A stretch of 64,000 nt of DNA from Nannocystaceae bacterium ST9 (GCA_048320885.1 JBLWFJ010000001.1:1349642-1413641), one strand, 5' to 3'. Numbered from the stretch's first letter, positions 3,968 through 35,024 are shown. The notes: generated from the sequence alone by a model not told the origin. Translations and numbers: made by a program.

Positions 3968-3976
3968 GCTCCAATA

Positions 3977-4462: not shown

Positions 4463-4485
4463 GGGAGGCCGGCGGACGGCCTCCC
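4463..4485 (-). terminator. GC-rich hairpin after the OMP gene stop (outer end of the right arm)
   Basis: GGGAGGCCG-gcggac-GGCCTCCC mirrors the hairpin at 3977-4001 and lies 11 nt downstream of the minus-strand stop at 4496. Confidence 0.4.
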
Positions 4486-4495
4486 TATTTCAGCC

Positions 4496-15969: not shown

Positions 15970-17682
15970 ATGCGACCCCTACTCACGATCTCTTCGTTAT
16001 CGACCCTCGCGCTCGGCCTCGGCCTCGCGCTCGCGCCCACGCCCGCCGACGCCTGCGGCGGGACCTTCTGCGACGGCGGCGGACCGACGGTGATGCCCGT
16101 CGATCAGACCGGCGAGAACATCCTGTTTTGGATCGATCACTCGGGCACGGAGCCGCACACCGAGGCGCACATTCAGATCCAGTACGAGGGCGAGGCGCAG
16201 GACTTCGCGTGGATCATCCCGGTCCAGCAGGTCCCCGAGGTCCTGGTCGGCAACCAGGCGCTCTTCGACAACCTGCTCGCCGCGACCGTCCCGACCTTCA
16301 CGATCACCACCACCAGCCAGACCTGCGACGACGGCTCGGTCGGGCTGTGTGCCGCGCGGGCCGAGGACAGCCAGTTCGCCGACGACGAGGCCGGTGACAT
16401 TGGCGGCGACGAAGGCGACACCGGCGACGGGACCGGCGGGCCCGAGATCCTCGATCGTGGGTTCGCGGGCGCCTTCGAGTACGTCGTGCTGACCGGCGAC
16501 TCCGTCCAGGAGATCGTCGACTGGCTCGACATGGCCGGCTACGCCCAGGACGACGACGCACCCCCGATCCTGCAAGAGTACCTCGACGACGACTTCGTGT
16601 TCGTCGCCGTCAAGCTGCGCGGCGGCGTCGACGTCGACGAGATCCATCCGCTCGCGATCCGCTACCCCGGCGTCGAGCCCTGCATCCCGATCAAGCTGAC
16701 CCGGATCGCCGCCGTCGACGACATGGCCATCCGCGCGTTCTTCCTCGGCGAGTCGCGGGCCGCCCCGATGAACTGGCCGCACGTGGTGCTCAACCCGGTC
16801 GCGTTCGATTGGGTCAACACCGCCAGCAACTACCTCGAGGTCGCCTCGCTGGCGATCGACGAGGCCGGCGGGCGAGCCTTCCTCACCGAGTACGCCGGCA
16901 TCGACGACATCGTCTCGACCAGCGGGGTCGACAGCCCGGCTTGGAACCCGAGCGCGTTCGAGGCGATCGAGCCGGTCGACGTCGTCGACGAGCTGACCAG
17001 CCAAGGCCTGGGCCTGACCTGCGACCCGTTCTCGAACGTGTGCAGCTTCGGCCACCCGCAGGTCGAGCCGCTGCTCGCCAAGTACCTGCCGGCCCCCGAT
17101 GGCGTGGACCCCTACGAATTCTGGGGCTCGCTCGCGTCCTACGAGGGCCTGATCGACCTCGCCGCCTGGTCGGGCACCGGCTTCGCCACCGACTTCGCCG
17201 AGCGGATCTCGACCCCGGGTCAGCACGCGATCGAGATGCTCGAGAGCGCCTCCTACCTGACCCGCCTGATGACCCTGCTCTCCCCGCACGAGATGATCGA
17301 GGACCCGACCTTCCACGAGACCGACTCGCTGCCCACGCTCGGCAACCAGTTCTCGGCCACGCGGACGATCGCCTGCGAGACCAACGACTGGGTCGACCTG
17401 CCCGACGAGCGCCAGGTCGCGCTGACCAACGGCAGCCTCTACCCCAGCATCGAGGGCATGCCCTTCGCCGAACGGATCGAGCAGATCCCGGCCATGGGCC
17501 CTGCCCAGATCACCACCGACAACCGCGCGACGATCGACGACCTGCTCGCCGACTGGAACGCCGGCAAGCTCTCGGGGCCCGAGCCCGGCTGCGCCGTCAC
17601 CCGCCTGCGGGCCGAGGCGCTGCTGACCATGCTCGCGCTGTTCGGGATCGCCGGGGCGACCCGCCGTCGGCGTCGGGGATGA
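15970..17682 (+). CDS. DUF2330-family secreted protein with MYXO-CTERM-like tail, paralog 2
   Basis: ORF trimmed to ATG 15970 (MRPLLTISSLSTLALGLGLALAPTPADACGGTFC). Collinear with paralog 1 along its whole length. Tail GCAVTRLRAEALLTMLALFGIAGATRRRRRG. Confidence 0.75.
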   Translation: MRPLLTISSLSTLALGLGLALAPTPADACGGTFCDGGGPTVMPVDQTGENILFWIDHSGTEPHTEAHIQIQYEGEAQDFAWIIPVQQVPEVLVGNQALFDNLLAATVPTFTITTTSQTCDDGSVGLCAARAEDSQFADDEAGDIGGDEGDTGDGTGGPEILDRGFAGAFEYVVLTGDSVQEIVDWLDMAGYAQDDDAPPILQEYLDDDFVFVAVKLRGGVDVDEIHPLAIRYPGVEPCIPIKLTRIAAVDDMAIRAFFLGESRAAPMNWPHVVLNPVAFDWVNTASNYLEVASLAIDEAGGRAFLTEYAGIDDIVSTSGVDSPAWNPSAFEAIEPVDVVDELTSQGLGLTCDPFSNVCSFGHPQVEPLLAKYLPAPDGVDPYEFWGSLASYEGLIDLAAWSGTGFATDFAERISTPGQHAIEMLESASYLTRLMTLLSPHEMIEDPTFHETDSLPTLGNQFSATRTIACETNDWVDLPDERQVALTNGSLYPSIEGMPFAERIEQIPAMGPAQITTDNRATIDDLLADWNAGKLSGPEPGCAVTRLRAEALLTMLALFGIAGATRRRRRG

Positions 17683-18676: not shown

Positions 18677-19444
18677 GTGCCCTTCGCCCCTGCCCTGCTC
18701 GCCGCGACGCTCGCGGTGGTGTTCCTCGCCGCGCTGGTCCGCACGACCTGGGGCTTCGGTGACGCGGTCGTGGCGATCCCGCTGCTGAGCTTGCTGGTCA
18801 GCATGCAGGTCGCCTCGCCGATGCTGGTGATGGTCAGCATCGTGCTCTCGCTGCTGCTCTTGCGCCGAGGCATGAGCCTGCTCGACTTCGGCGTGATCGC
18901 CCGGCTCCTGCTCGGAGCGCTGGCCGGCATCCCGCTCGGGCTGCTCGTGCTGACCGACCTGCCCGAGTCGCTCGCGCGCAAGGGCCTGGGCGGCGTGCTG
19001 CTCGGGTTCGCGATCTGGTCGCTGATCCGCGCTCGCCGAGCGAAGCCCGCGCTCGCGCGCGAGCCCACGCCACCGCTCGCGCTGGCCAAGGCGCTCCCGC
19101 TCGACCTCGGGTTCGGCGTGCTGGTCGGCGCATGCAGTGCGGCCTTCGACATCTCCGGCCCGGTCTTGCTGATCCACGCGACCGCCCGGCGATGGACGCC
19201 CGAGCAGCTGCGCATGAACTTGCAGGCCGTGTTCCTGCCGCTCGGGTTGCTGACGATGACCGGCCACGCGCTCTCGGGCCTGTGGACGCGCGACGTGCTC
19301 CTGCTCGCGGCCTGGTGCCTGCCGGTGGTGATGCTCGCGCGAGTGTTCGGCGAGCGGCTGCGGGTCCGACTCGAAGGCCAGCGCGGGGTGGTCGTGCTCT
19401 ACCTGCTGATCTTCGCGCTCGGCGTGCTGATGCTCGCGGTCTGA
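18677..19444 (+). CDS. TauE/SafE (DUF81) family anion exporter
   Basis: 255 aa, 7-8 TM. N-terminal GFGDAVVAIPLL and second-half GACSAAFDISGPVLL repeat text typical of TauE/SafE. Confidence 0.8.
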   Translation: MPFAPALLAATLAVVFLAALVRTTWGFGDAVVAIPLLSLLVSMQVASPMLVMVSIVLSLLLLRRGMSLLDFGVIARLLLGALAGIPLGLLVLTDLPESLARKGLGGVLLGFAIWSLIRARRAKPALAREPTPPLALAKALPLDLGFGVLVGACSAAFDISGPVLLIHATARRWTPEQLRMNLQAVFLPLGLLTMTGHALSGLWTRDVLLLAAWCLPVVMLARVFGERLRVRLEGQRGVVVLYLLIFALGVLMLAV

Positions 19445-19547
19445 GCGGATCTTTATGCGTTCTTGATCCCCGCCGGCCCGCTTCCGCATGCCGGCCCGAC
19501 ACCGCGCCGCCCAGGCCCGACTACGCTGCGCGCCGGAGACCCTGGCC

Positions 19548-19688
19548 ATGCCCGAACTCGAAGTCGTGCTCGAGCGCCTCGTCGGCGTGATCGTGCTCGT
19601 GATGCTCGTGACGCTCGCCCTGCTCGCGACCGTGTCGATCGTCTGGACCCTGGCCAGCGACGATCACGAGCAAGACCGGCTCGGGTGA
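19548..19688 (+). CDS. 46-aa single-TM sORF upstream of the kinase gene
   Basis: Internal ATG of ORF 19488..19688: MPELEVVLERLVGVIVLVMLVTLALLATVSIVWTLASDDHEQDRLG. G/C third positions are strong. Ends 17 nt before the kinase ATG. Confidence 0.4.
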   Translation: MPELEVVLERLVGVIVLVMLVTLALLATVSIVWTLASDDHEQDRLG

Positions 19689-19705
19689 GCGAAGATGGTC
19701 GCGGC

Positions 19706-20821
19706 ATGCCGACGCGCACCCCCGCTCGCGTTCCGCTCGTGCTCGAGTTCGTGCTCGCGTTGGTGGTCGTCGCCGCGGTCAGCCTGGTCGCGCTGCTGCT
19801 CGAGCCCTTCCTCGCGCAGACCGACCACGTGATGCTCTACCTGCTCGGGGTGATCGCGGTCGCGTTCCGAGCCCGGCGTGGCCCGGCCTTGCTCGCCGCG
19901 GTCGCGAGCGTGGCGGCCTTCGACTTCCTGTTCGTCGAGCCGCGCTTCACCTTCGCGATCAGCGACACCCGCTACCTGCTGACCTTCGCGGTCATGGCGA
20001 CGATCGGCGTGGTCGTGGTCTCGCTGGTCGCCGAGGTCCGCAAGCAGGAGCGCGTCGCGTTCGAGCGCGAGGTCGCGGTTCAGGGCGAGCGGCTGCGCTC
20101 GGCCTTGCTGGCCTCGGTCTCGCACGATCTTCGCACGCCGCTCGGGGCGATCCTCGGGGCCGTGACCACGCTCGAGCAAGATCGCGAGAAGCTCGATCCC
20201 GGCGTGCAGACCAGCTTGCTGGCCAGCATCCACGACCAGACCGAGCACCTCAACCGACTGCTGCGCAACCTGCTGGAGATGACCCGGCTCGAGGGCGGCG
20301 CGGTCGTGCTCGCGCGCGAGCTGGCGGCGATCGAGGAGCCGATCGGCACGGTGCTGGCCTCGCTGACCCACCGGATCGGCGATCGGCGGATCGAGGTCGA
20401 GCTCGACGCGGTCGAGGGGCCGCTCTTCGCGACCTTCGATCCGATCGCGGTCGAGCTCGTGCTCAGCAACCTGATCGAGAACGCGCTGCGCTACGGCGGC
20501 GATCCGATCGAGATTCGAGCGGCGCGCGAGGGCGATGCGATCGCCGTGCGCGTGCTCGACCGTGGGCCCGGGCTCGATGAACACACGCTCGCCCACGCGT
20601 TCGAGAAGTTTCAGCGCGGGCTGGTCGGCGAGCGCAAGGGCGGCCCGGGCTCGGGCGGCGCCGGGCTCGGGCTGGCGATCGTCCGCAGCCTGGTCGAGGC
20701 CAGCGGCGGGCGCGTGTGGGCCCGCAACCGCGACGACGGACGGGGAGCCGAATTCGGGTTCACGCTCCCGCGCGCCGAGCTGCCGATCTTGCCCGAGGGG
20801 CTCCCGGAGGACTCGCCATGA
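19706..20821 (+). CDS. kdpD: KdpD-type histidine kinase lacking the N-terminal sensor domains (TM/DUF4118-like + HisKA + HATPase)
   Basis: ORF 19463..20821 trimmed to ATG 19706. Four TM helices (DHVMLYLLGVIAVAF...), H-box SVSHDLRTPL, N/G boxes NLIENALRY and GGAGLGLAIV. ATGA overlap with kdpE. Confidence 0.8.
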   Translation: MPTRTPARVPLVLEFVLALVVVAAVSLVALLLEPFLAQTDHVMLYLLGVIAVAFRARRGPALLAAVASVAAFDFLFVEPRFTFAISDTRYLLTFAVMATIGVVVVSLVAEVRKQERVAFEREVAVQGERLRSALLASVSHDLRTPLGAILGAVTTLEQDREKLDPGVQTSLLASIHDQTEHLNRLLRNLLEMTRLEGGAVVLARELAAIEEPIGTVLASLTHRIGDRRIEVELDAVEGPLFATFDPIAVELVLSNLIENALRYGGDPIEIRAAREGDAIAVRVLDRGPGLDEHTLAHAFEKFQRGLVGERKGGPGSGGAGLGLAIVRSLVEASGGRVWARNRDDGRGAEFGFTLPRAELPILPEGLPEDSP

Positions 20822-21519
20822 CCGAGCTGCGCCCGACCATCCTGGTCGTCGAAGACGAGCCGCAGATGCGCCGCTTCCTGCGGGCGCTGATCGGCAGCCA
20901 CGGCTACGCGCTGGTCGAGGCCGAGACCGGCCGCGAGGCGCTCGCGCTGGCGGCCAGCCATCGCCCCGATCTGATCGTGCTCGACCTCGGCCTGCCCGAC
21001 GTCGACGGGCTCGAGCTGGTCGGCAACCTGCGCGGCTGGACGCAGACGCCGATCATCGTGGTCTCGGCGCGCGGGCAAGAGCAAGACAAGGTCCGCGCGC
21101 TCGATCTCGGCGCCGACGACTACCTGACCAAGCCGTTCGGATCGCACGAGCTGCTCGCCCGGATCCGCGTGGCCCTGCGCCACGCCGCCCACGTCGGCGA
21201 GCAGGACGGCCCGGTGTTTCGCTCGCACGGCCTGATGGTCGACCTCGCGGCCCGCCGAGTCGCGCGCGGCGACGACGAGGTCCACCTGACCCCGCTCGAG
21301 TACAAGCTGCTGACCACGATGATCGAGCACGCCGGCAAGGTGCTCACGCATCGCCAGCTGCTCGAGCGCGTGTGGGGGCCCGCGCACGCCGACGACACCC
21401 AATACCTGCGCGTCTACATGGCCCAGCTGCGCCGCAAGATCGAGGCCGATCCGGCCCGGCCGCGGCTGCTCAAGACCGAGACCGGCGTCGGCTATCGGCT
21501 CGAGGTCGACGAGGGTTGA
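20818..21519 (+). CDS. kdpE: OmpR-family response regulator KdpE
   Basis: ATG 20818. REC domain (ILVVEDEP...LIVLDLGLPDVDG...TKPF) plus winged helix (LTPLEYKLLTTMIEHAGKVLTHRQLL...GVGYRL). Lies next to kdpFABC. Confidence 0.85.
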   Translation: MTELRPTILVVEDEPQMRRFLRALIGSHGYALVEAETGREALALAASHRPDLIVLDLGLPDVDGLELVGNLRGWTQTPIIVVSARGQEQDKVRALDLGADDYLTKPFGSHELLARIRVALRHAAHVGEQDGPVFRSHGLMVDLAARRVARGDDEVHLTPLEYKLLTTMIEHAGKVLTHRQLLERVWGPAHADDTQYLRVYMAQLRRKIEADPARPRLLKTETGVGYRLEVDEG

Positions 21520-21620
21520 GGCTTGCAACTCGCACGATCGCGATCACTGGGGCTCGCGATTCGCAGGGCCTCGCGAACCCGCATCGGCGCGAGACCCAGA
21601 CCCAGCCAGCCGAGCCGCGC

Positions 21621-21636
21621 TGGCACGAGCGATGCA
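21621..21636 (+). promoter_or_regulatory. sigma-54-type promoter upstream of kdpF-kdpABC
   Basis: TGGCACG-AGCG-ATGCA versus the consensus TGGCACG-N4-TTGCW (one mismatch, exact GG/GC spacing). Lies in the 230-bp gap after kdpE. Predicted start near 21647. Confidence 0.45.
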
Positions 21637-21649
21637 CGGCGAGCGGGGC

Positions 21650-21754
21650 ATGCAGATCCTCGTGTTTCTCGCCATCGGCTGGGTCGCCTACGCGGCTTGC
21701 CTGGCCATCCTGCCCGCGATCGATCGCGTCGTTCATGAAGGAGTCGGGCGATGA
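21650..21754 (+). CDS. 34-aa hydrophobic sORF immediately upstream of kdpF
   Basis: MQILVFLAIGWVAYAACLAILPAIDRVVHEGVGR. G/C third positions over the first ~27 codons. Its stop overlaps the kdpF ATG (ATGA). Too short for the ORF track. Confidence 0.25.
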   Translation: MQILVFLAIGWVAYAACLAILPAIDRVVHEGVGR

Positions 21755-21831
21755 CCTGGATCTCCGCCGTGTGTGCCGGGCTGGCGTTCGGCTACCTGCT
21801 CTTCGCGATCTTGCGGCCCGAACGATTCTGA
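21751..21831 (+). CDS. kdpF: K+-transporting ATPase subunit F
   Basis: 26 aa: MTWISAVCAGLAFGYLLFAILRPERF. The C-terminal YLL.A.LRPE(R/K)F is the KdpF signature. GAAGGAG SD upstream. 13 nt before kdpA. Confidence 0.75.
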   Translation: MTWISAVCAGLAFGYLLFAILRPERF

Positions 21832-21844
21832 ACCGGAGACCACC

Positions 21845-23515
21845 GTGCACGACCTCGTCTACGCCTTCGCGCTGCTCGCCGCAGCGCTCGCGCTGTCCTG
21901 GCCGCTCGGGCGAGCCATGGCCGCCATCGCCCAACCTCCACGCAGCCAGCCCGACCGGCTCGATCGCGCGATCGTCCGGGTGCTCGGACCGGCCGCGATC
22001 GCCGAGCAGACCTGGAAGAGCTACGCGCTCGCGCTGCTCGGGTTCAACGCGCTGATGTTCACGATCACCTACGCGATCTTGATCTTGCAGGGCTCGCTGC
22101 CGCTCAACCCGGCCGGCAAACCCGGGCTCGAGCCCTCGCTGGCGTTCAACACCGCGATGTCGTTCGCGACCAACACCAACTTGCAGCACTACTCCGGCGA
22201 GGTCGCGCTGTCCTACTTCTCGCAGCTGTTCGGGCTGACCTGGCTGCAGTTCGTGTCGGCCGCGACCGGCATCGCGGCGTTGGCCGCCATCGCGCGAATG
22301 CTCGGTCCGAGCGGCGCCGTCGGCAACTATGCCCGCGATCTGATCCGCTTCACCCTGCTGATCCTGCTGCCGCTCGCGCTGGTCGTCGGCGCCACGCTGA
22401 TCGTCGCCGGCACACCGATGACCTTCGCCGGGCCGGTCGAGCTGACCACGCTCGAGGGCGACTCGCAGACGATCGCTCGCGGACCGGTCGCGGCGATGGT
22501 CGCGATCAAGCAGCTCGGGACCAACGGCGGCGGCTACTTCGGCCCCAACAGCACGCACCCGCTCGAGAGCCCGAGCTTCTTCACCTGCTCGCTCGAGAAC
22601 CTGTCGATCCTCGTGGTCTCGATGGCCTGCCTGTGGATGTTCGGCCGACTGATCGGGCGGATGCGCGACGCCTGGCTGCTCTTCGCGGTCATGGCCGCGC
22701 TCTTCGTGGCCATGGTGATCCCGGCCGTGCTGCTCGAGGCCCAGCCCAACCCCGGCCTCGCCGATCTGCCGATCGTCGAAGCCCGCGGCAACCTCGAGGG
22801 CAAGGAGCTGCGCTTCGGCAGCGCGGCCGGCCCGGTCTGGGCGGTGACGACGACCGCGACCAGCAACGGCTCGGTCGCGGCCATGCACGACAGCCTCAAC
22901 CCGCTGACCGGGCTGCTGCCGATGATCGGCATGTGGCTCAACGTCAGCTACGGCGGCGTCGGGGTCGGGCTGATCGGCATGCTGCTCTACGTGGTCGTCG
23001 CGGTGTTCATCGCCGGGCTGATGGTCGGGCGCACGCCCGAGTATCTCGGGCGCAAGGTCGAGGTCCGCGAGATGAAGCTGGCCGCGCTGGCCTTGCTGCT
23101 GCATCCCTTGCTGATCCTCGGTGGCACCGCATTGTTCGTGGCCACGCCCCTCGGGACCGAGACCATGTCCAACCCGGGCAGCCACGGGTTCTCGCAGGTG
23201 CTCTACGAGATGAGCTCGGCCGCGGCCAACAACGGCTCGGGCTTCGAGGGCCTGGCCGACAACACCACGCCCTGGAACCTGATCACCGGGCTGTGGATGT
23301 TCCTCGGTCGCTACCTGCCGATCGTGCTGCCGCTTTCGATCGCGGCCTCGCTCGCCCGCAAGCAACGCGTACCCGAGAGCGCCGGCACGCTGCGAACCGA
23401 CTCGCCGACCTTCGCGCTGGTCCTGCTCGGCTGCGTGGTCCTGCTCGGCGCGCTGCTCTTTCTTCCCGCCGCCGTGCTCGGCCCGATCGCCGAACACCTG
23501 GAGATGACCCGATGA
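21845..23515 (+). CDS. kdpA: K+-transporting ATPase subunit A
   Basis: ORF 21773..23515 trimmed to GTG 21845 (556 aa). Texts [36 protein letters not shown]. Polytopic. Confidence 0.9.
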
Positions 23516-25572
23516 ACGAACCCATCACGCGGCGAGCGAAGACTCGCTCGTTGGTCACGCCCGAGCTGGCCCGCGCCGCGCTGCGCGAGTCGGTGATCAT
23601 GCTCGACCCCCGACGAATGGCCCGCAACCCGGTGATGTTCGTGACCGAGGTCGGGGCCCTGCTGAGCACGATCGCGGCCGCGCTCGCGCTCGGCTCGGGC
23701 GACGCCGGCTTCCCGATCACGATCTCGATCGTGCTGTGGCTGACGGTGCTGTTCGCCAACTTCGCCGAGGCGCTGGCCGAGGCGCGCGGCAAGGCGCAGA
23801 CCCAGGCGCTGCGAGCCACTCGCACGCAGACCGAGGCTCGTCGGCGGCGCGACGACGGCACGATCGAGTCGGTCGGGTCGACCGAGCTGCGCAAGGGCGA
23901 CGTGATCGTCGTCGCGCTCGGCGAGCTGATCGCCGCCGACGGCGAGATCATCGAGGGCGTGGCCAGCATCGACGAGTCGGCGATCACCGGCGAGTCGGCG
24001 CCGGTCGTGCGCGAGGCCGGAGGTGATCGCTCGGGCGTGACCGGAGGCACCCGCGTGCTCTCGGACTCGATCGTCGTGCAGGTCACCGCCGCGCCCGGCG
24101 ACTCGTTCCTCGATCGAATGATCGCGCTGGTCGAGGGCGCGCAGCGGCAAAAGACGCCCAACGAGATCGCCCTGACCGTCACGCTCGCCGGGCTCACGCT
24201 GGCGTTCTTGCTGGTCACGGTCTCGCTGGTCCCGATGGCCGCCTACTTCGACGCGACCATCGACATCCCGACCGCGGTCTCCCTGCTGGTCTGCCTGATC
24301 CCGACCACGATCGGCGGGCTGCTGGCGGCGATCGGGCTGGCCGGCATGGATCGGGCGTTGGCCGCCAACGTGCTGGCCAAGTCGGGCAAGGCGGTCGAGC
24401 TGGCCGGCGACATCGACACGGTCCTGCTCGACAAGACCGGCACGATCACCCGCGGTAACCGGCAAGCCACGCATCTGTATGCGGCCGGGACCTTCGAGGA
24501 GCGCGAGCTGGCCGAGGCCGCCATGTTGGCCTCGCTCGCCGACACGACCCCGGAGGGCCGCTCGATCGTCGGGCTCGGCGAGGGCCTGCTCGGGCGGCGG
24601 CCGAGCGAGCCGCTCGGGGCCAAGCCGATCAGCTTCTCGGCCCAGACCCGGCTCAGCGGGATCGACCTCGCCGAGGGCACGAGCATCCGCAAGGGCTCGG
24701 TCGACGCGATCGCCAAGTGGTTGATCGAGCATGGCAGCTCGCTGCCCGACGCGGTCCGCACGATGACCGAGGCGATCGGCCGCGAGGGCGCGACCCCGCT
24801 GGTCGTCGTGAGGGCGCGACCCGGCCAGGCCGCGCACACGCTCGGCGTGGTCCAGCTGACCGACGTGCTCAAGCCCGGGATCGCGGCTCGGCTCGCCCGC
24901 CTGCGCGCGATGGGCCTGCGCGTGGTCATGGTCACCGGCGACAACCCGCTGACCGCCAAGGCGATCGCCGGCAAGGCCGGGGTCGACGACTTCATCGCCG
25001 AGGCCACGCCCGAGGACAAGCTGGCCTACATCCGCCGCGAGCAGGCCGAGGGCCGGCTGATCGCGATGATGGGCGACGGGACCAACGACGCGCCCGCGCT
25101 CGCCCAGGCCGACATCGGCGTGGCCATGAACTCGGGCACCCAGGCGGCCAAGGAGGCCGGCAACATGGTCGATCTCGACAGCGATCCGACCAAGCTGATC
25201 GAGGTGGTCGAGATCGGCAAGCAGCTGTTGATGACCCGCGGCGCGCTGACGACCTTCTCGATCGCCAACGACGTCGCCAAGTACTTCGCGATCGTGCCGG
25301 CGCTCTTCGTCGCCGCGCTGCCGCAGCTGGCCGCGCTCGACGTGATGGCCCTCGGCTCGCCGCGCAGCGCGATCTTGTCGGCGGTGCTCTTCAACGCCAT
25401 CGTGATCCCGCTGCTGGTGCCGATCGCCCTGCGGGGCGTTCGCTACCGGCCCGAGGGCGCCGACAAGCTGCTGCGCCGCAACTTGCTGATCTACGGGCTC
25501 GGCGGGGTCGCGGCGCCCTTCGTCGGGATCAAGCTCTTCGACCTCGCGCTCGCGCTGATCGGGATGCCATGA
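23512..25572 (+). CDS. kdpB: K+-transporting P-type ATPase subunit B
   Basis: ATGA overlap with kdpA. Motifs [55 protein letters not shown]. 686 aa, in frame with the tail of ORF 22633..25572. Confidence 0.95.
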
Positions 25573-26153
25573 CCAGCTTCACGTCCACGCTTCGAATCCT
25601 CTCGGGTCTCACGCTCGGCACGCTCGCGCTGGTCGGCGCCTACGCGCTGATCTTGCTCGGCGTCGGGCTCGGCCTCGCGCCGGCGGCCGCCGAGGGCTCG
25701 CTGATCCGCGGGCCCGAAGGCGAGCTCGTCGGCAGTCGCCTGGTCGGCCAGTCGTTCACCGAGCCCGGCTACCTGTGGCCGCGGCCCTCGGCGGTCGACC
25801 ACGCCGCGGACGCGGCCGGCGGCAGCAACCTCGCGGCCAGCAACCCGGCCCTGCGCGAGCGAGTGCTCGCCGACCTCGCTCGCCATGCGGCCAGCGACGA
25901 GCGACCGATCCCCGCCGATCTCGTGACCGCGTCGGGCTCGGGCCTCGACCCCGACATCACGCTGGCCGGCGCGCTCTACCAGGCCCCGCGGATCGCCGCC
26001 GCACGCCGGGTCGATCGCCACGAGATCGAAGAGCGGCTGCGCTCGCTCGCCCACACGCCCAACCCCTGGTCGCCGCCGCTGATCAACGTGCTCGAGACCA
26101 ACCTCGAGCTCGATCGCACCTTCGGCGCGCTCCCGACGAGGCCGGCGGAATGA
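25569..26153 (+). CDS. kdpC: K+-transporting ATPase subunit C
   Basis: ATGA overlap with kdpB. One N-terminal TM, texts GSRLVGQSF and [12 protein letters not shown]. 194 aa. Confidence 0.9.
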
Positions 26154-27292
26154 GCCCGACGGATCGCGCCGAGGACTTCCTCGCGCTGGTTCGTCGGGCT
26201 CGCCAAGGTCGGCTCAAGCTCTTCCTCGGGCCCGCGCCCGGCGTCGGCAAGACCTACCGGATGCTGCAAGAGGCCCAGCAACTGAGCGCGACCGGGGTCG
26301 ACGTGGTCATCGGCGTGATCGAGACCCACGGACGACCCGAGACCGCGGCGCTGATCGAGGGGCTCGAGCAGGTGCCGATGCGGCGGATCGAGTATCGCGG
26401 GGTCGGCCTCGACGAGCTCGACCTCGACGGCGTCCTCGCCCGCGCGCCCGAGATCGCGCTGATCGACGAGCTCGCGCACACCAACGCGCCCGGCAGCCGC
26501 AACCGCAAGCGTCACCAGGACGTGCTCGATCTGCTCGAGGCCGGGATCCACGTGTTCGCCACGCTCAACGTCCAACACCTCGAGAGCCTCAACGACCTGG
26601 TCTCGCGCAGGGTCGGCGTGCAGGTCCGCGAGACCGTGCCCGACGTGTTCCTGCGCCGCGCCGATCAGATCGTCAACATCGATCTGCCGGCCGAGGATCT
26701 GCTCACCCGCCTGCGCGCGGGTCGGATCTATCCGCTCGAGCGGGTCGAGCGGGCGCTCGCCAACTTCTTTCAGGCCGGCAAGCTCGAGAGCCTGCGCGAG
26801 CTGGCCTTGCGCGAGGTCGCCGAGTCGATCGAGCGGGCCCAGCAGCGCGAGCGCGAGGTCAGCGGAGAGCGTGTGGGCCGAGTCGCGCTCAGTCGGCTGA
26901 TGGTCGGGCTCTCGAGCTCGCCGAACGCCGCGGCGCTGCTGCGTCGCGCGTCGCGACTGGCCGGTCGACTCAACGCGCATTGGTTCGCGGTCCATGTCCA
27001 GACCCGACGCGACGCGCCCGATCGGATCAGCGCGACCGACCAGCGCCGCCTGTTCGAGGCCCAACAGCTGGCGGTCGACCTCGGCGCGGAGGTCCAGGAG
27101 CTCGAGAGCGACGACGTGATCGCGGCGCTGATCGACTTCGCCAGCGCGCATGGGGTCTCGGACATCGTGATCGGGGCTCCGCCGCCGACCCACCCGATCC
27201 TGGCGTGGTTCACCCGCAGCGTCGCCCGGCGAATGCTCGACCACGCCAACCGCTTCAACCTCCACGTGCTGGCCACGGAGGTCTCGCCATGA
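26150..27292 (+). CDS. stand-alone KdpD N-terminal sensor domain plus Usp-like domain (no TM, no kinase)
   Basis: ATGA overlap with kdpC. LKLFLGPAPGVGKTYRML (P-loop), ALIDELAHTNAPGSRNRKRHQDV, TLNVQHLESLND, then Usp-like LMVGLSSSPNAAALLRRASRLA...DIVIG. 380 aa. Confidence 0.85.
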   Translation: MSPTDRAEDFLALVRRARQGRLKLFLGPAPGVGKTYRMLQEAQQLSATGVDVVIGVIETHGRPETAALIEGLEQVPMRRIEYRGVGLDELDLDGVLARAPEIALIDELAHTNAPGSRNRKRHQDVLDLLEAGIHVFATLNVQHLESLNDLVSRRVGVQVRETVPDVFLRRADQIVNIDLPAEDLLTRLRAGRIYPLERVERALANFFQAGKLESLRELALREVAESIERAQQREREVSGERVGRVALSRLMVGLSSSPNAAALLRRASRLAGRLNAHWFAVHVQTRRDAPDRISATDQRRLFEAQQLAVDLGAEVQELESDDVIAALIDFASAHGVSDIVIGAPPPTHPILAWFTRSVARRMLDHANRFNLHVLATEVSP

Positions 27293-29109
27293 CGCTGCGG
27301 ATCAAGCTCTTGCTCGCCCAGCTGCCCATGCTGCTGGCGACCGCGCTGACGATCGCGGTCGCGATGCTGGCCGCGCGTCGCTTGGGCGGCGAGCCGGACG
27401 CGATCATCGAGGAGAACTTTCGCAGCTTCGATGCCGCACGCGCGATGCTCACCGCGCTCGAGCGGATCGACGCCGAGCTGACCCGCGGCGCGCTGGTCGG
27501 TGAGCCGCCCGATCCCGCGAGCGTCGACGCGGCGGTGGCCGAGTTCGAGGCGCCGCTGGCGATTCAGCGGGACAACGTCACCGAGCCCGGCGAGCACGAG
27601 GCGACCGCCGAGCTGGTCGCGGCTTGGCAGCGCTACCGAGCCGAGCTGCCGCTCGAGCCCGGCGCGAGCCTCGAGGATCACCGCGCCCGCTCCGACCAGC
27701 TGCGCGATCGAATCGAGGTGATCTTCGCGATCAACCGCGCTGGCATGCGCAGCAAGGCGGACGCGGCTCGCGTCGAAGCTCGCCGCGAGACGATCGTGAT
27801 CGCGGCGACCGGACTGATCGCGCTGGCCGTCGCGCTGCCCTTCGGCGTCGTCCTGGTCCGTCGACTGCTGCGCCCGGTCAAGGTCATGGCCGCGACCGTG
27901 GCCCGGCTCGCCAGCGGCGACTTCGACGTCCGAGTTCGGCTCGAGGGTCGCGGCGACGACGAGGTCCATCGCTTGGCGCTCGCGTTCAACGAGATGGCCG
28001 AGCGGCTCGGGGCCTATCGCGCCAGCTCGCTCGGTGATCTGCTCGAGGCCAACCTGCGCATGCAGTCGGTCGTCGACAGCCTGCCCGAGGCCGTGCTGGT
28101 CTGCGACACCGCCGGGGTCGTGGTTCAGGCCAATGTTTCGGCGCATCGGCTCTTCGGTGAGCCGACCAGCCTCGCGCGCCTGCCCAGCTCGATCGCCGGC
28201 CCGGTCCGCGCGGTGTTCGATCGCGTGGTCCGAACCGAGCGGGCCAGCGAGTGGGCCGGGATCGCCGACGCGCTGGCCTTCCCGCGCGGGACCGAGGTCG
28301 TGTGGCTGGCCGTCGGCGCGACCCCGGTGCTGCGTGACCAACGGTTGGCCGCGGTCACGCTCGCGCTGCGCGACGTCAGCCAGGCCCGTCGACTCGAGGG
28401 CTTTCGCGGCGACCTGGTCTCGGCCGCCGCCCACGAGCTGCGGACCCCGCTGACCTCGCTGCACATGGCCGTGCATCTGTGCCTGGAGGAGGCCGCCGGC
28501 CCACTCGACGATCGCCAGAAGGATCTGCTGACGGCCGCGCGCTCCGACTGCGAGCGCCTGCAGTCGGTCGTCGACGAGCTCCTCGATCTCGCGCGGGCCG
28601 AGGCCGGCACGATCCGGCTCGAGCTGCGCCCGCTGGTCGTGCAGTCGGTCCTGCACGAGGCGCTCGCCCGCCACGAGCTCGACGCCGAGCGCCAGGGCGT
28701 CACGATCGTCGTGGTCACGCCCGAGGCCGGCCTGCGCGTGCTCGCCGATCGCTCGAGGCTCGCGCAGGTGTTCGACAACCTGATCACCAACGCGCTGCTG
28801 CACGCCGCGGGCGTCCGGCGGATCGAGCTGGGCGCCGAGCAGGTCGGCGAGCGAGTCCACTTCCGGGTCGACGACGACGGCCCCGGCATCCCGCTCGAGC
28901 TTCGGCCCCGCGTGTTCGACAAGTTCGTGCGCGGACCCGCGACCGAGGCCGAGGGCACCGGGCTCGGGCTCAGCATCGTTCGCGATCTCGTGCGAGCGCA
29001 TCGCGGCGAGGTCGGGGTCGACGACGCGGCGATCGGCGGCGCGCGAGTGTGGTTCGAGCTGCCGACCGCCGCGGACGGCGGACCGATCCACGACATGCTC
29101 GCGCCGTGA
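27289..29109 (+). CDS. sensor histidine kinase (2 TM, HAMP, PAS-like, HisKA, HATPase)
   Basis: ATG 27289 overlaps the upstream stop (ATGA). HAMP text VRRLLRPVKVMAATVARLASGDFDVRV...EVHRLALAFNEMAERL, H-box SAAAHELRTPL, G-box GTGLGLSIVRDLV. Confidence 0.85.
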   Translation: MTLRIKLLLAQLPMLLATALTIAVAMLAARRLGGEPDAIIEENFRSFDAARAMLTALERIDAELTRGALVGEPPDPASVDAAVAEFEAPLAIQRDNVTEPGEHEATAELVAAWQRYRAELPLEPGASLEDHRARSDQLRDRIEVIFAINRAGMRSKADAARVEARRETIVIAATGLIALAVALPFGVVLVRRLLRPVKVMAATVARLASGDFDVRVRLEGRGDDEVHRLALAFNEMAERLGAYRASSLGDLLEANLRMQSVVDSLPEAVLVCDTAGVVVQANVSAHRLFGEPTSLARLPSSIAGPVRAVFDRVVRTERASEWAGIADALAFPRGTEVVWLAVGATPVLRDQRLAAVTLALRDVSQARRLEGFRGDLVSAAAHELRTPLTSLHMAVHLCLEEAAGPLDDRQKDLLTAARSDCERLQSVVDELLDLARAEAGTIRLELRPLVVQSVLHEALARHELDAERQGVTIVVVTPEAGLRVLADRSRLAQVFDNLITNALLHAAGVRRIELGAEQVGERVHFRVDDDGPGIPLELRPRVFDKFVRGPATEAEGTGLGLSIVRDLVRAHRGEVGVDDAAIGGARVWFELPTAADGGPIHDMLAP

Positions 29110-29164: not shown

Positions 29165-30514
29165 GTGGACGAGCTCGAGCCGCCGCTGACCAAGACCCAT
29201 CGCGCCGCGCTGGCCATCCACGCCGAAAAACGCCCGGGTCGACTGAAGCTGCGCTTGGTCGACGGGCCGAGCGGGTCGACCGACTTCGAGCTGACCAAGC
29301 CGACGATTCAGGTCGGCCGAAGCCCGATGGCCGACCTCGTGATCGACGAGCGCTCGATCAGCAAGATCCACTTCGAGCTGCGCCTGGCCGGGGGCGGCGT
29401 CGACCTGCGCGACCGCGAGAGCACCAACGGTTGCTGGCTGCAGGGTTGTCGAGTCTTCCACGCGCGCTTGCGGGTCGGCGACTCGTTCCGCGCCGGCGAC
29501 CTCCAGTTCATGATCGTCGGCGTCGACGAGGTCGACGTCGTGGTCACCTTGGCCCCGCGCTGCGGCGCGCTGCAAGGCGCGAGCGTGGTGATGCGCGAGC
29601 TGTTCGCGTCGATCGACGCGCTCTCGCTCGCGCCGCTCGACATCCTGATCCTCGGCGAGACCGGCACCGGCAAGGAGCTGACCGCCCGCACGCTTCATCA
29701 GCTCTCCGAGCGCCGATCCAAGCCCTTCGTGACCCTCGACTGCGGCGCGATCTCGGCCTCGCTCGCCGAGGGCACGCTCTTCGGGTTTCGCAAGGGCGCG
29801 TTCACGGGCGCCGACCATGATCAGCCGGGCGTGTTCGAGGAGGCCAACCGCGGGACCATCTTCCTCGACGAGATCGGCGAGCTCGTGCCCGAGCTGCAAG
29901 TCAAGCTGCTGCGAGTGCTCGAGCGACGCGAGGTCACCCGCATCGGCGAGCCGGCCAAGCCGCGAGCGCTCGACATCCGGGTCGTCGCGGCCACGCATCG
30001 CGACTTGCGGCGCGAGGTGGCCGAGGGCCGCTTCCGCGAGGATCTGTTCTATCGCTTGGCCCGCGGCCTGATCACGCTCCCACCCCTGCGCGAGCGTGGC
30101 GAGGACATCCTCATGCTCGCCGACGATTTCCTGGGCAAGCTGCGCGACGAGTTCGGCCGCGACGTCCGAATGAGCGCCGCGTGCAGGGACGCGATGCTGC
30201 GGCATCCCTGGCCCGGCAACGTCCGCGAGCTGCGGAACTGCATCGAGCAGGCCTTCCACATCAAGCGCTCGGGCGAGCTCGCGGCGAGCGACCTGCGACT
30301 CGGCACCCTGGCGTGGAAGAGCCAAGGCACGTCCGAGCTGGCCGACGCGACCAAGACCTACGCCGACGCCCACGTCGCGCTGGACAAGGTGTTCTTGGCC
30401 AAGGTGCTCGAGAGCACGAGCGGCAACCTCTCGGAGGCGGCCCGCCGACTCGGCCTCAGCCGCGACACGCTGCGAGTCAAGCTGAAGGCCGCTCGGCTCT
30501 ACCCCGACGGCTGA
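29165..30514 (+). CDS. FHA-domain sigma-54-dependent transcriptional activator
   Basis: GTG start. FHA-like [25 protein letters not shown]...STNG, then AAA+ [18 protein letters not shown] (GAFTGA loop), [18 protein letters not shown], and a C-terminal Fis-type [19 protein letters not shown]. Confidence 0.85.
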
Positions 30515-31255
30515 GGGATTCTCGTCACCTGTCGCGCCGTCATGGTTCCGGCACGATCGTGAGCCAGACATCGACCGGTTCGTGCAACACGTCGACGCGC
30601 CAGACCCCCGAGTGCTCGAAGTCCACGATCGAGTAGTCGTCGACCAGCGTGAAGAACACCGGCTGGCGAACTCGCTCATCGAGGGCCTCTTGCTCGGTCG
30701 CTGGGTTTTCGGCCAGACAGCGCTCGTACCAGATCACCAGCCCCTCGGAGCGCTCCAGCCGGTAGGTCCCGGGCTCGGGCATGTCGATCAGGAAGCTCTG
30801 ATACATGTCCGTGGAGCCGTTGGCCTCGTTCTGATTGGTCTTCTCGTAGGGCCCGAGCGTGGCCTCGTCCTCACAGTCGAACTTCGCCTCGAACACCCAG
30901 CCACCTTCCGCTCGGGCCTCGAGCAGCAGCATGTCGGCGCACTGCCGATGTTGAATCCACATCGCCGGCGACTGGCTCGCGTAGTCCGTCGCCAGCGACG
31001 CTCCATACGCGGACTCCATGGCCGACCAGACGCCCTCGTCGTAGGTCGCGGTCCGGTAGAGCGCCGCAAATTCCTCCGGGCCCAATTGCTCGGCCAGCCA
31101 ACGCGTGAAGTGGCCTGCACGAGAATAGAAGGGGCCGAAGTCGCTCGAGTGGACCTCGGAAAACTCTCGCGGATCGGACAGCGATTCGTTGATCGAAGGC
31201 TCGAAGCTGACGGCGAGGCCCTCGGCCAAGATCGAGGGGGCACCGGTTCGAATCT
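30507..31255. repeat. segmental duplication, copy A (~750 bp)
   Basis: Matches 31837-32593 with few differences, including ~328 nt that look identical by eye (30578-30905 versus 31916-32243) and a 6-nt indel near the 3' end of the gene. It also covers the stop codon of the upstream activator gene. Confidence 0.85.
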
Positions 31256-31673
31256 CGCATGCGACTCCGTGCGCGAGCTCGTGGTATGCGGTCCATGGCG
31301 TCGCGAACACGACCCCGTCGCGGCTGGTACATGCCGCCGCATCGGGGTTGGAGCAGTAGTCTTCGATGTCTTTGATCGCGTAGACCGGCACTCGCCTCTG
31401 AACGTCGATCCCGAGTTGGTCGGCCACGTACTGCACGTGGCGCTCGTAGTCGATCACCGACCCGGCACAGAGGAAGCGGTTTGGACCGATGTGGACATCG
31501 AGGTGCTCGGTCTCGTAGCTCACCGGGAGGTCCGGCACGTCCGAGACGATCTCCTCGAAGTCCAGACAAGTGAGCGGTCCCTCGGGCTCCGGGTCATGAG
31601 TCTCGTTGCATGCCAGGCTCAGCGCTCCCGCCAGTCCAAGGCTGACACGTCGGATGCAGTGGCGTTCGAGCAT
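30540..31673 (-). CDS. lipoprotein with HExxH motif (putative zinc metallopeptidase)
   Basis: ORF trimmed to ATG 31673: MLERHCIRRVSLGLAGALSLAC (lipobox). Contains AYHELAHGVAC (HExxH). No family recognised beyond that. Confidence 0.6.
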   Translation of the reverse strand: MLERHCIRRVSLGLAGALSLACNETHDPEPEGPLTCLDFEEIVSDVPDLPVSYETEHLDVHIGPNRFLCAGSVIDYERHVQYVADQLGIDVQRRVPVYAIKDIEDYCSNPDAAACTSRDGVVFATPWTAYHELAHGVACEIRTGAPSILAEGLAVSFEPSINESLSDPREFSEVHSSDFGPFYSRAGHFTRWLAEQLGPEEFAALYRTATYDEGVWSAMESAYGASLATDYASQSPAMWIQHRQCADMLLLEARAEGGWVFEAKFDCEDEATLGPYEKTNQNEANGSTDMYQSFLIDMPEPGTYRLERSEGLVIWYERCLAENPATEQEALDERVRQPVFFTLVDDYSIVDFEHSGVWRVDVLHEPVDVWLTIVPEP

Positions 31674-31836
31674 GACCGCTCCAGTAAAGCACGCCCTTCT
31701 GGGCATCCTCCATCGCCATCCTCACGTCGAACATGCTGCGAGTCGAGCTGAAGCCCGAGGGATTCTTGGTCGGAGGCTGACGAACGACTCGTCGACCTTC
31801 GTTGTTCGGACCAGATGCGCCGCGCGAGCGCCCGAG

Positions 31837-32593
31837 CGGCGAGGGATTTCTCGTCACCTGTCGTGCCGTCATGGTTCTGGCACGATCGTGAACCAGACAT
31901 CGACCGGCGGCCCATGTTCGTGCAACACGTCGACGCGCCAGACCCCCGAGTGCTCGAAGTCCACGATCGAGTAGTCGTCGACCAGCGTGAAGAACACCGG
32001 CTGGCGAACTCGCTCATCGAGGGCCTCTTGCTCGGTCGCTGGGTTTTCGGCCAGACAGCGCTCGTACCAGATCACCAGCCCCTCGGAGCGCTCCAGCCGG
32101 TAGGTCCCGGGCTCGGGCATGTCGATCAGGAAGCTCTGATACATGTCCGTGGAGCCGTTGGCCTCGTTCTGATTGGTCTTCTCGTAGGGCCCGAGCGTGG
32201 CCTCGTCCTCACAGTCGAACTTCGCCTCGAACACCCAGCCACCCTCCGCTCGGGGTTCGAGCAGCGGCATGTCGGCGCACTGCCGATGTTGAATCCACAT
32301 CGCCGGCGATTGGCTCGCGTAGTCCGTCGCCAGCGACGCTCCGTAGGCGGACTCCATCGCCGACCAGACCCCCTCGTCGTAGGTCGCGGTCCGGTAGAGC
32401 GCCGCAAACTCCTCCGGGCCCAATTGCTCGGCCAGCCAACGCGTGAAGTGGCCTGCGCGATCGTAGTAGGGGCTGAATTCGTCCAAATGGACCTCGGAAA
32501 ACTCTCGAGGATCGGACGGCCACTCGTTGATCGAGGGCTCGAAGCTGACGGCGAGGCCCTCCGTCAAGATCGAGGGCGCCCCGGTTCGAATCG
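31837..32593. repeat. segmental duplication, copy B
   Basis: See copy A. Similarity ends abruptly after CCGGTTCGAATC (32581-32592). Confidence 0.85.
31869..32593 (-). pseudogene. 5'-truncated duplicate of the HExxH lipoprotein gene (C-terminal ~240 codons only)
   Basis: The tail of ORF 31869..32771, from ...IRTGAPSIL onward, is nearly identical to the paralog at 30540..31673. The signal peptide, lipobox and HExxH are missing. The listed N-terminus is antisense to a plus-strand coding frame. Confidence 0.6.
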
Positions 32594-33135
32594 AGCCCTT
32601 CGTGCCGCAGCCCGACCAAGCCTGCGACTCGACGCCCAACATCCCGCTGGTCGACGACGAATCGAGCACGCATGGCATCGCGGCCGCGGGCGCGGTCACG
32701 ATGTTCGGGCCCAACGATGACGCGGTCACCGAGCTCTCGAACATCAGCTTCGAGGTCCGCGAGGTGTTCAAGCGCGACGGCTCGATCGACGTCCACCTCG
32801 CGGGCTTCGACGCCGACGCCGACGAGGGCGGCTACGGCTCGCTCTCGTTCCTCGATCCGCACATCCACCTCGCCGCGCCGGTCAGCGCCCCGCTCGTCGC
32901 CGACACCGTCCGCTTCCCCGCGGGCTCGCTGCGCATGGAGGTCTCCGGCGTGGTCGTCTCGAACGGCGAGGTCGCGTTTGGGGGTCAGCGCTCGTCCGGC
33001 ATCTACGTCAACACCGGCACGGCCACGCTCGCCCGCACGCCGGACGGCGGCTTCGCGTTCGTGGACGCGCCCTTCGAAGCGGGCGGCTACCTGTTCGTGC
33101 TGAACACCGAGCAAGCGAGCGCGCAGGCCGAGTGA
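32594..33135 (+). CDS. hypothetical protein, probably 5'-truncated at the duplication junction (possible restart at ATG 32701)
   Basis: The frame of ORF 32527..33135 shows strong G/C third positions from the junction (32594) to the TGA at 33135 and is followed by a perfect 16-bp terminator hairpin. No signal peptide and no credible native start. Confidence 0.4.
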
Positions 33136-34521: not shown

Positions 34522-34997
34522 GCCTCGCCTCGCAAGATCGCGAGCACTTCGCTCGCTCGCTCGGCCGCCGAGATCCGATCGATCGTGCTCGGATCGGCGA
34601 ACCAGCGGCTCACGCTCGCCAGCGCCCGCAGGTGCTCGCTGGGCTGCATCGACGAGACCAGCGCGACGAACACTCGGACCGGCCGATCGTCGGGGGCCCC
34701 GAACGCGATCCCCTGCGCCGCGATCCCGAGCACCGCTCGCGACCCGGTGATCTCGGCCTTGGTGTGCGGCAACGCCAGTCCGCGACCGATCGCCGTCGAG
34801 CCCAACGCCTCGCGCTCGCGCAGCCCGCTCGCGAGCTTCGCCGACGACAGCCCGGTCTGCTCGGCCAGCGCGAGCGCGAGCTCGCCGAGCACCTCGTCGG
34901 CCTCGCGTGCGCGCAGCGTCACGATCGCGGATTCGCCGGAGAGCAGGTCGTCGATCGGCACGCCGGCGATATAGCCAGGGTCGGGCCGCGAGGGCAT
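34518..34997 (-). CDS. PTS EIIA-Ntr (PtsN)-like protein, paralog 2
   Basis: EIIA type-2 text: ...REREALGSTAIGRGLALPHTKAE... (phospho-His site), VRVFVALVSS. ATGA overlap with the NtrC-like gene. Start set at ATG 34997; the track uses TTG 35000. Confidence 0.75.
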   Translation of the reverse strand: MPSRPDPGYIAGVPIDDLLSGESAIVTLRAREADEVLGELALALAEQTGLSSAKLASGLREREALGSTAIGRGLALPHTKAEITGSRAVLGIAAQGIAFGAPDDRPVRVFVALVSSMQPSEHLRALASVSRWFADPSTIDRISAAERASEVLAILRGEA

Positions 34998-35024
34998 CAA
35001 GAAGCCATAAAGAGGCGCGGCGGT

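Follow-up and report, generated by a model that had tools for sequence, protein, structure and literature searches.

The kdp locus of Nannocystaceae bacterium ST9 probably subjects a single potassium pump to three layers of control, in which a stand-alone protein composed of the N-terminal and Usp domains of KdpD (KdpD-N/Usp) serves as a serine-kinase brake beside two insulated two-component systems (TCSs). The locus lies in a stretch of 64,000 nucleotides (nt; GCA_048320885.1 JBLWFJ010000001.1:1349642-1413641), which is referred to here in its full length as the window. Its GC content is about 70%, its proteins are identical to the NCBI annotations of this organism, and the open reading frames (ORFs) of its plus strand were translated and scanned with Pfam. 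The loci of relatives are coded L001 to L118. The first TCS comprises KinC, a membrane histidine kinase of the KdpD C-terminal type, and the response regulator KdpE, whose genes precede those of the pump. The second comprises HK2, a histidine kinase encoded directly after KdpD-N/Usp, and, as its predicted partner, a response regulator of the NtrC type.

In the proposed mechanism, KdpD-N/Usp, whose gene is translationally coupled to kdpC, would phosphorylate the serine of the TGES motif of KdpB and thereby turn the pump off when K+ is sufficient, a brake that would need no fusion to a histidine kinase. HK2, translationally coupled in turn to KdpD-N, would phosphorylate the NtrC-type regulator, whose gene lies on the opposite strand 4 kb further downstream; this regulator would bind a conserved TTGCA..GCA site and activate a sigma-54 promoter before kdpF. 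KdpE, acting with KinC, would bind TTTATG-N5-TTGATS boxes (S = C or G) before two operons; it would thus autoregulate its own operon, with read-through into kdp, and would also drive the operon of a PtsN-like EIIA protein and the NtrC-type regulator. Activities, partner specificities, promoter use and the order of these steps are deduced here from genes, domains, motifs and their conservation.

The brake has a precedent. The N-terminal domain of KdpD is an atypical serine kinase, which phosphorylates S162 of KdpB and inhibits the pump (Silberberg et al., 2024; PMC11018627). Of the two activities of KdpD, that of the histidine kinase is the less conserved, and in some species both reside on separate chains, most often as a KdpD/Usp protein and a protein composed of transmembrane (TM), GAF and DHpCA domains (PMC11018627). 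Deinococcus, Anabaena and Alicyclobacillus keep the gene of the serine-kinase chain behind those of the pump and have a separate histidine kinase; the KdpD/Usp-only protein of D. geothermalis is stimulated by c-di-AMP, and many organisms with a stand-alone KdpD/Usp protein have no identified histidine kinase (PMC11018627).

The ST9 protein has the features expected of such a chain. KdpD-N/Usp matches PF02702 over residues 19-227 (E 1.7e-91) and Usp over residues 249-367, and Pfam found no TM, DHp or CA region in it. It is 47% identical to residues 22-345 of E. coli KdpD, matches PDB 2R8R, and keeps the Walker A motif GPAPGVGKT, the Walker B motif IDELAH (D109/E110 in E. coli) as well as R190; in place of W39 it has a tyrosine, which is still aromatic. 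KdpB is 59% identical to its E. coli counterpart, with an identical segment of 12 residues around S162, the TGES serine. KdpD-N/Usp is predicted from these residues to be the serine kinase for KdpB. Its best NCBIfam match is NF038185, 'KdpD-like non-kinase potassium sensor', at 349 bits and below the cut-off of 550; this 'exception' model was probably trained on a narrower clade. All of the 120 best homologues are likewise stand-alone proteins, of 372-419 amino acids (aa), from Polyangia, Pirellulales, 'Deltaproteobacteria' and others, and by this comparison KdpD-N/Usp is a member of an old, multi-phylum lineage of stand-alone proteins.

Two variations were seen in other loci. The KdpD-N/Usp ORFs of L007, L009, L011, L028, L044, L046 and L049 (Syntrophales, Aminicenantes and others) are 540-592 aa long, with some 180 extra C-terminal residues. 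In Bacteroidota loci (e.g. L052-L068, about 8800-10000), 1.1-1.5 kb without a match to the query proteins separates kdpC from the KdpD-N gene.

The kinase encoded next to KdpD-N/Usp recurs with it. HK2 consists of a TM segment, a periplasmic helical domain of about 135 aa, a second TM segment, and HAMP, PAS, HisKA and HATPase_c domains. Its homologues bear the JGI label 'NtrC-family sensor histidine kinase KinB', and some have a 4HB_MCP_1 match in the periplasmic region; the periplasmic domain of HK2 itself gave no sequence match among solved structures. For a survey, 80 genome loci with a stand-alone KdpD-N/Usp gene were annotated with the proteins of the window, 72 of them with enough downstream sequence. 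A histidine kinase ORF directly follows KdpD-N in 42 of these 72 loci, most of these kinases being homologous to HK2 over the full length, and another 16 loci carry a kinase upstream of kdpA. Regulators of the NtrC type (REC and sigma-54 AAA+ domains) are encoded in 42 of the 80 loci and regulators of the OmpR type in 14. The survey suggests that most such kdp loci, in Myxococcota, Bacteroidota, Binatota, Verrucomicrobiota and others, encode a KinB-like HAMP-PAS kinase and usually an NtrC-type regulator with it. To judge from this distribution, kdp operons of this type have HK2 as their conserved and ancestral partner kinase.

The regulator that belongs to HK2 can be recognized by comparison with L081, the closest relative (KdpD-N 84% identical). 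There the module runs from a small ORF through kdpF, kdpABC and KdpD-N to HK2, joined by ATGA overlaps, and is followed by a convergent gene for an NtrC-type regulator. The window is colinear with L081 over positions 21623-29085 and again over 33193-34537, and the NtrC-type regulator of ST9, 4 kb downstream of HK2, is 80% identical to the one that abuts HK2 in L081; it is the predicted cognate partner of HK2. The intervening insertion has a GC content of about 65%, as against about 71% in its flanks, and probably does not form part of the kdp system. The earlier note on this DNA had named the nearby NtrC-like gene as a candidate target of phosphotransfer from the kinases. The adjacent gene (29165-30514) turned out to encode an FHA-sigma54-HTH protein without a receiver domain in Pfam, which therefore cannot accept phosphotransfer; with the regulator linked to kdp in L081 it has an identity of only 41%, and it sits in the insertion that L081 lacks; it was rejected as partner of HK2. 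The FHA-sigma54 gene lies on the plus strand of the insertion, and the remainder holds overlapping candidate ORFs on both strands (30540-31751, 31869-32831 and 32470-33135) without a Pfam match. A different arrangement was observed in the Verrucomicrobiota loci L029, L036, L039 and L040 (about 900-5200), in which an HK2-like kinase gene is flanked by genes for regulators of both the NtrC and the OmpR type, upstream of kdpABC/KdpD-N; this two-regulator arrangement could constitute a branched pathway.

The sigma-54 branch also has its presumptive DNA sites. The element TGGCACGAGCGATGCA before kdpF is the sole match to TGGCAC-N5-WTGCW in the window, where 0.03 would be expected by chance, and sigma-54-like elements occur at the equivalent position in L081 (TGGCATGACCGATGCA) and L118 (TGGCACACACATTGCT), in the latter between kdpE and kdpF. 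Such an element is found at most 450 nt upstream of kdpA in 8/8 Myxococcota loci (L001-L006 included), against a background of 0.07 per 450 nt. At the same threshold, the 450 nt upstream of kdpA in the non-myxobacterial loci gave matches only in L054, L075 and L077, so that a dependence on sigma-54 outside the Myxococcota would follow only from the NtrC-type regulators. In eight of nine Myxococcota kdp loci, a candidate activator site of the form TTGCA-N2-3-YGCA precedes the sigma-54 element by 65-147 nt; L090, which has lost the regulator, lacks the site.

The other TCS is related to the canonical Kdp system. The best NCBIfam match of KinC is KdpD; its DUF4118 domain is 47% identical to residues 403-509 of E. 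coli KdpD and its core 36% identical to residues 609-889. Pfam detected no KdpD_N, Usp or GAF domain in KinC, and the mere 10 or so residues between DUF4118 (16-120) and HisKA (131-198) leave no room for a GAF domain. Orthologues of the same length are 76-89% identical, and the GAF-less form is common among homologues. Over its full length, KdpE shows 54.5% identity with its E. coli counterpart, and it keeps D52 as well as the DNA-contact residues R193, R200 and T215; among the NCBIfam models, the KdpE equivalog fits it best, with 286 bits slightly below the cut-off of 325. By these features, KinC and KdpE are a genuine but minimal Kdp-type system. In a terminator scan of positions 19300-21900, no site was found between kdpE and kdpF, the sole terminator-like site being that which follows the upstream TauE gene; transcription of the KdpE operon would therefore be expected to read through into kdp.

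Certain positions of the DHp domain reportedly set the partner specificity of histidine kinases. The DHp helix after the phospho-histidine reads TSLHMAVHLCLE in the HK2 orthologues, identically in the window, L081 and L118, and G[AT]ILGAVTTLE in the KinC orthologues. Because these residues are specific to each family, the specificity rule implies that signaling from KinC to KdpE would be insulated from that between HK2 and the NtrC-type regulator, and the two pathways are probably separate in this sense.

A short repeat may link KdpE to its putative targets. The AT-rich tandem repeat TCTTTATG-N3-TCTTGA has exactly two matches without mismatch in the window, one before the operon of KinC and KdpE and one before that of the EIIA protein and the NtrC-type regulator. 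The repeat is also present upstream of the orthologous kinase gene in L087, L090, L092, L116, L117 and L118, and upstream of an EIIA gene in L087, L088, L089, L115 and L116; otherwise, both strands of the 527 kb of relatives' DNA contain two variants with one mismatch, beside the EIIA and TrkH genes of L117, and one stray match with two mismatches. The E. coli KdpE site is TTTATA-N5-TTTACA (PMC3264566), and TTTATG-N5-TTGATS shares with it the geometry of a 6+5+6 direct repeat and the invariant leading TT. With such boxes before the operon of KdpE itself and before the EIIA/NtrC-regulator operon, the two TCSs would form a feed-forward cascade.

The EIIA protein matches PF00359 and contains an ALPH motif; its best NCBIfam match, the PtsN model TIGR01419, reaches 66 bits and lies below the cut-off of 139. 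Its gene is one of two tandem PtsN-like EIIA paralogues on the minus strand (34518-34961 and about 35023-35480; 71% identical). The KdpE-box-like motif sits between both, and the downstream copy is ATGA-coupled to the gene of the NtrC-type regulator.

Both systems have undergone turnover among the relatives. L081 has no DUF4118 kinase gene or kdpE beside its kdp operon, while L087, from the same metagenome sample, carries the orthologous kinase/kdpE pair (87% identical) at an unrelated locus; in L087, L115 and L116, this pair lies between genes of the arginine-deiminase pathway. The opposite loss is seen in L090 (kinase 78% identical), which keeps the gene order of the window from TauE through KdpD-N, with KinC, KdpE, pump and KdpD-N intact. 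Its HK2 gene (15494-16747) encodes a remnant of 417 aa, in which TM, HAMP and PAS regions are retained, the H-box HELRTPL has become LEQLRPPL, and the phospho-histidine and the CA domain are lost. In the same locus, the gene of the NtrC-type regulator is gone, the activator site is absent and the promoter has a shorter distance between GG and GC; kdp has no other visible input there. This joint decay of kinase, regulator, activator site and promoter ties the elements of the sigma-54 branch together, and it is the sole support for a transcription of kdp that would depend on RpoN and the regulator. In L118 (kinase 59% identical), both systems are intact around one kdp operon, and the dual architecture is therefore conserved within the Nannocystaceae and not peculiar to ST9. 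In L092, KinC/KdpE is probably adjacent to kdp. A metagenome scan with the DUF4118 kinase returned only one close relative, on a contig of 1.8 kb.

Some neighbouring genes of these loci may be mentioned separately. In L117 (14454-17849), KinC/KdpE lies near genes for a PtsN-like EIIA protein, TrkH, TrkA and another pair of NtrC-type regulator and kinase, and not near kdp, which suggests a broader gene neighbourhood of K+ homeostasis. A BBP2-family porin gene stands beside the kdp or K+ regulatory genes in L081 (3798-5279), L092 (10093-11026), L117 (13077-14258) and L118 (19896-21134) and is absent from the locus in the window. L118 also contains a TPR-like ORF of 105 aa (13941-14258) between kdpA and kdpB, which overlaps the ends of both genes.

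At several points, the observations weigh against the three-layer model as set out above. The predicted KdpE box is identified by position, geometry and conservation, and could belong to another factor or represent a core promoter element. No such box was found directly upstream of kdpF in a scan of the window and its relatives, L081 has none, and the KinC/KdpE pair is unlinked from kdp in this closest relative (L081/L087); control of kdp by KdpE may therefore be indirect or absent in L081/L087. Insulation based on DHp residues is a rule of thumb, and the simple terminator scan is insensitive in DNA of 70% GC. Within the promoter, the -12 element reads ATGCA instead of TTGCA, and a leader of only about 2-3 nt is left between the transcript start derived from the promoter and a conserved ORF of 34 aa that precedes kdpF. 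Finally, the Usp sequence GLSSSPNAA fits the c-di-AMP motif (A/G/C)xSxSxxN(Y/F) only in part.

The earlier note had described a KdpD split into separate genes, from which the sensor would be reconstituted. That the two parts arose from a single kdpD by a frameshift or misassembly is vanishingly improbable: they lie at either end of the operon with 5.3 kb between them, and both have many full-length orthologues of the same architecture and length, which excludes such an artefact; over 100 homologues have the same stand-alone form, and the same arrangement recurs on independent contigs. The functions of KdpD are indeed distributed over separate polypeptides, with two histidine kinases in one transcription-coupled cluster, but a split of KdpD in place is not supported. 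Given the old lineage of stand-alone proteins and the unlinked KinC/KdpE pair of the closest relative, the two 'halves' are better understood as independent modules that were brought together, with no local fission. It is rather unlikely that KdpD-N/Usp docks on KinC to rebuild a KdpD-like sensor and also modulates HK2, as a shared input module, although this reading could hold alongside a role as serine kinase. The coupling of the KdpD-N and HK2 genes in ST9 and relatives, and the adjacency of KdpD-N and a kinase in 42/72 loci across phyla, would agree with it, as would the KdpD-type TM domain which KinC retains at 47% identity. The reported complementation in trans between the two halves of E. 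coli KdpD would also fit. Furthermore, the N-terminal region of E. coli KdpD has been reported as a scaffold for KdpE and DNA, and Rajeev et al. (2011; PMC3333781) regarded the corresponding D. vulgaris pair as a single kinase 'split into two ORFs'. Against a shared module stand the occurrence of stand-alone KdpD-N/Usp at loci without a nearby kinase, such as several Pedobacter loci, the separation of KinC/KdpE from KdpD-N in L081/L087, and L090, where HK2 decays and KdpD-N stays intact. An autonomous serine-kinase function would by itself explain why the gene is retained, and since the N-terminal domain of KdpD alone is a serine kinase, neither a reconstituted sensor nor a shared module is needed any longer to account for it.

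A quite improbable reading assigns kdp to HK2, the NtrC-type regulator and sigma-54 only, and makes KinC/KdpE a PtsN-linked system for K+ or stress with other targets. The EIIA gene is the only conserved neighbour of KinC/KdpE in the arginine-deiminase context of L087, L115 and L116, the pair of L117 is found near TrkH/TrkA, and the lack of a KdpE box immediately 5' of kdpF points the same way. This is opposed by L090, where the order KinC-KdpE-kdpFABC-KdpD-N persists while the sigma-54 branch has decayed, by the adjacency to kdp conserved in L118 and probably L092, by the identity of 54.5% between the KdpE proteins of ST9 and E. coli, which have the same DNA-contact residues, and by the lack of a terminator-like site between kdpE and kdpF. 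The three-layer model, with its brake and two insulated TCSs, is retained as the favoured reading. Its extension to a two-tier cascade, of a kind not yet described for Kdp, is possible, yet doubtful: KdpE would autoinduce its own operon and induce that of EIIA and the NtrC-type regulator, the regulator phosphorylated by HK2 would fire the sigma-54 promoter, and KdpD-N/Usp would be a common hub, a brake on the pump that may also adjust one kinase or both, with the relatives capturing the turnover of these parts.

The features of the locus are collected in Table 1. Translation and a Pfam/HMM check recovered the gene order, the domains and all five ATGA overlaps that had been described for it. 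The kdpF gene of the earlier note is also present, but its position had to be corrected to that in the table, and it is preceded by the conserved ORF of 34 aa, which was missing from the note's list of genes. The ORF at 21632-21754 was rejected as kdpF, as it matches no KdpF model and the corrected kdpF is the sole ORF that passes these models. For kdpA, the alignment to its L081 counterpart begins at 21845, where the GTG is the most likely start.

Table 1. Positions of the features of the kdp locus within the window
Feature	Position	Strand	Remarks
KdpE-box-like repeat TCTTTATGCGTTCTTGA	19450-19466	+	Upstream of the operon of the 46-aa small ORF (sORF), KinC and kdpE; TTTATG-N5-TTGATC, 11-bp period
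46-aa single-TM sORF	19548-19688	+	Upstream of the DUF4118 kinase gene; GC3 0.90 in frame
KinC, DUF4118 (4-TM)-HisKA-HATPase_c kinase, 371 aa	19706-20821	+	
KdpE, OmpR-family response regulator	20818-21519	+	ATGA overlap with KinC
Putative upstream activator site CTTGCAACTCGCA	21522-21534	+	Directly after the kdpE stop codon; TTGCA-N2-3-YGCA
Sigma-54-type promoter (-24/-12) TGGCACGAGCGATGCA	21621-21636	+	Precedes kdpF; TGGCAC-N5-ATGCA
Conserved 34-aa TM sORF	21650-21754 (alternative start 21632)	+	ATGA-coupled to kdpF
kdpF, 26 aa	21751-21831	+	PF09604 33.7 bits (cut-off 21.2); TIGR02115 28 bits (cut-off 26.85)
kdpA	21845-23515	+	Pfam KdpA E 2e-214; GTG start inferred
kdpB, P-type ATPase subunit	23512-25572	+	12-residue motif with S162 equivalent
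kdpC	25569-26153	+	
KdpD-N/Usp, stand-alone KdpD_N (PF02702) + Usp, 380 aa	26150-27292	+	
HK2, TM-HAMP-PAS_4-HisKA-HATPase kinase, 606 aa	27289-29109	+	
Segment of about 4.1 kb inserted relative to L081	29110-33183		FHA-sigma54 activator and ORFs without family match
NtrC-type response regulator (REC, sigma-54 AAA+, HTH_8)	33184-34521	-	Domains by Pfam
PtsN-like EIIA (PTS_EIIA_2)	34518-34961	-	ATGA-coupled to the NtrC-type regulator gene; Pfam E 1.2e-23
Second KdpE-box-like repeat TCTTTATGGCTTCTTGA	34997-35013	-	Upstream of the EIIA/NtrC-regulator operon

Two small ORFs of the locus have no counterpart in Pfam or NCBIfam. The TM core and the C-terminal DRLG of the 46-aa sORF are kept in L090, and shorter TM sORFs occupy its position in L092, L117 and L118; it has no significant family match in either database, and a SafA-like connector was rejected for it, the Pfam match being insignificant (E 0.04) and confined to the TM region. 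The 34-aa ORF likewise gave no match in either database and has homologues at the same position in L081, L090 and L118, with similar ORFs in L092 and L001. More generally, myxobacterial kdp operons contain a single-TM ORF of 26-35 aa between the sigma-54 promoter and kdpF, overlapping the start of the latter (L081 5462-5566, L090 about 9850-9955, L118 about 12080-12160, L001 about 5185), which might encode an extra small subunit of the pump or a leader peptide. Rfam gave no match anywhere in the window, so neither a c-di-AMP nor another riboswitch was found in the leader, and scans with the sigma-70 consensus, which are uninformative in DNA of 70% GC, found nothing.

Several parts of this arrangement have been described in other bacteria. 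With the split class of Silberberg et al., ST9 shares a KdpD_N and Usp protein whose gene comes right after kdpC, the pairing of KdpE with a separate membrane kinase that resembles the C-terminal part of KdpD, and the Walker A/B residues together with the TGES serine of KdpB. It differs in that its separate kinase has no GAF domain, and thus represents a GAF-less sub-variant. It also has a second, unrelated kinase of the HAMP-PAS type, whose gene is translationally coupled to that of KdpD/Usp, and an NtrC-type regulator with a sigma-54 promoter. The kdp operon of D. vulgaris Hildenborough encodes the KdpD-sensor/Usp protein DVU3336, the kinase DVU3335 and the regulator DVU3334, which binds the promoter of its own operon, and several regulators target D. 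vulgaris kdp (PMC3333781). The D. vulgaris system (DVU3334-DVU3339) and that of ST9 thus both have a KdpD/Usp protein, a separate kinase and an own regulator for the kdp operon, and D. vulgaris offers an experimental precedent for reading HK2, the NtrC-type regulator and sigma-54 as one unit. In ST9, by contrast, a distance of 4 kb separates the gene of the NtrC-type regulator from the operon; it follows a PtsN-like gene on the other strand, and an extra pair of KdpD-C-like kinase and KdpE lies upstream in the same direction of transcription as kdp. DVU3334 is reportedly sigma-54 dependent.

In comparison with the Kdp system of E. coli, KdpE is conserved at the level of an orthologue, with the same DNA-contact residues, KdpFABC is conserved as well, and the predicted box has the 6+5+6 geometry of a direct repeat. 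A PtsN-like EIIA gene is associated with the kinase/KdpE pair of ST9, a genomic link only; E. coli PtsN (EIIA-Ntr) reportedly interacts with KdpD and stimulates it. The ST9 KdpD is not a single polypeptide, its regulator genes precede the pump genes instead of following them, and its KdpE box stands before the regulator operon and not before kdpF. HK2 resembles the KinB/AlgB-type systems in domain layout and in its pairing with an NtrC-family regulator, a resemblance at the level of annotation only, and its context is kdp instead of alginate.

Since earlier work has described KdpD in split form, proteins that consist of KdpD/Usp only, and kdp operons that encode their own regulator and a separate kinase, the split of KdpD is not in itself new. 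The statement in the earlier note that short KdpD proteins are known from cyanobacteria identifies a known class, but it is incomplete, as stand-alone KdpD-N/Usp chains with a separate kinase have also been documented in Deinococcus, in Alicyclobacillus, for D. vulgaris (DVU3334-3336) and by a survey of 5495 species. What is apparently new is that a single kdp operon combines a KdpE system with one of the sigma-54/NtrC type, together with the recurrent genomic link between KinC/KdpE and PtsN-like EIIA genes and the shared predicted KdpE box, through which both EIIA and the NtrC-type regulator would be connected with KdpE. The series of relatives that displays the turnover of both systems (both intact, unlinked, sigma-54 branch decayed) and the breadth across phyla of the pairing between KdpD-N and a KinB-like kinase also appear to be new. 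Unsurprising in principle, these observations are useful to specialists on Kdp and on TCSs, and they offer a tractable case in which to study how TCSs can be swapped without loss of control over an essential homeostatic pump.

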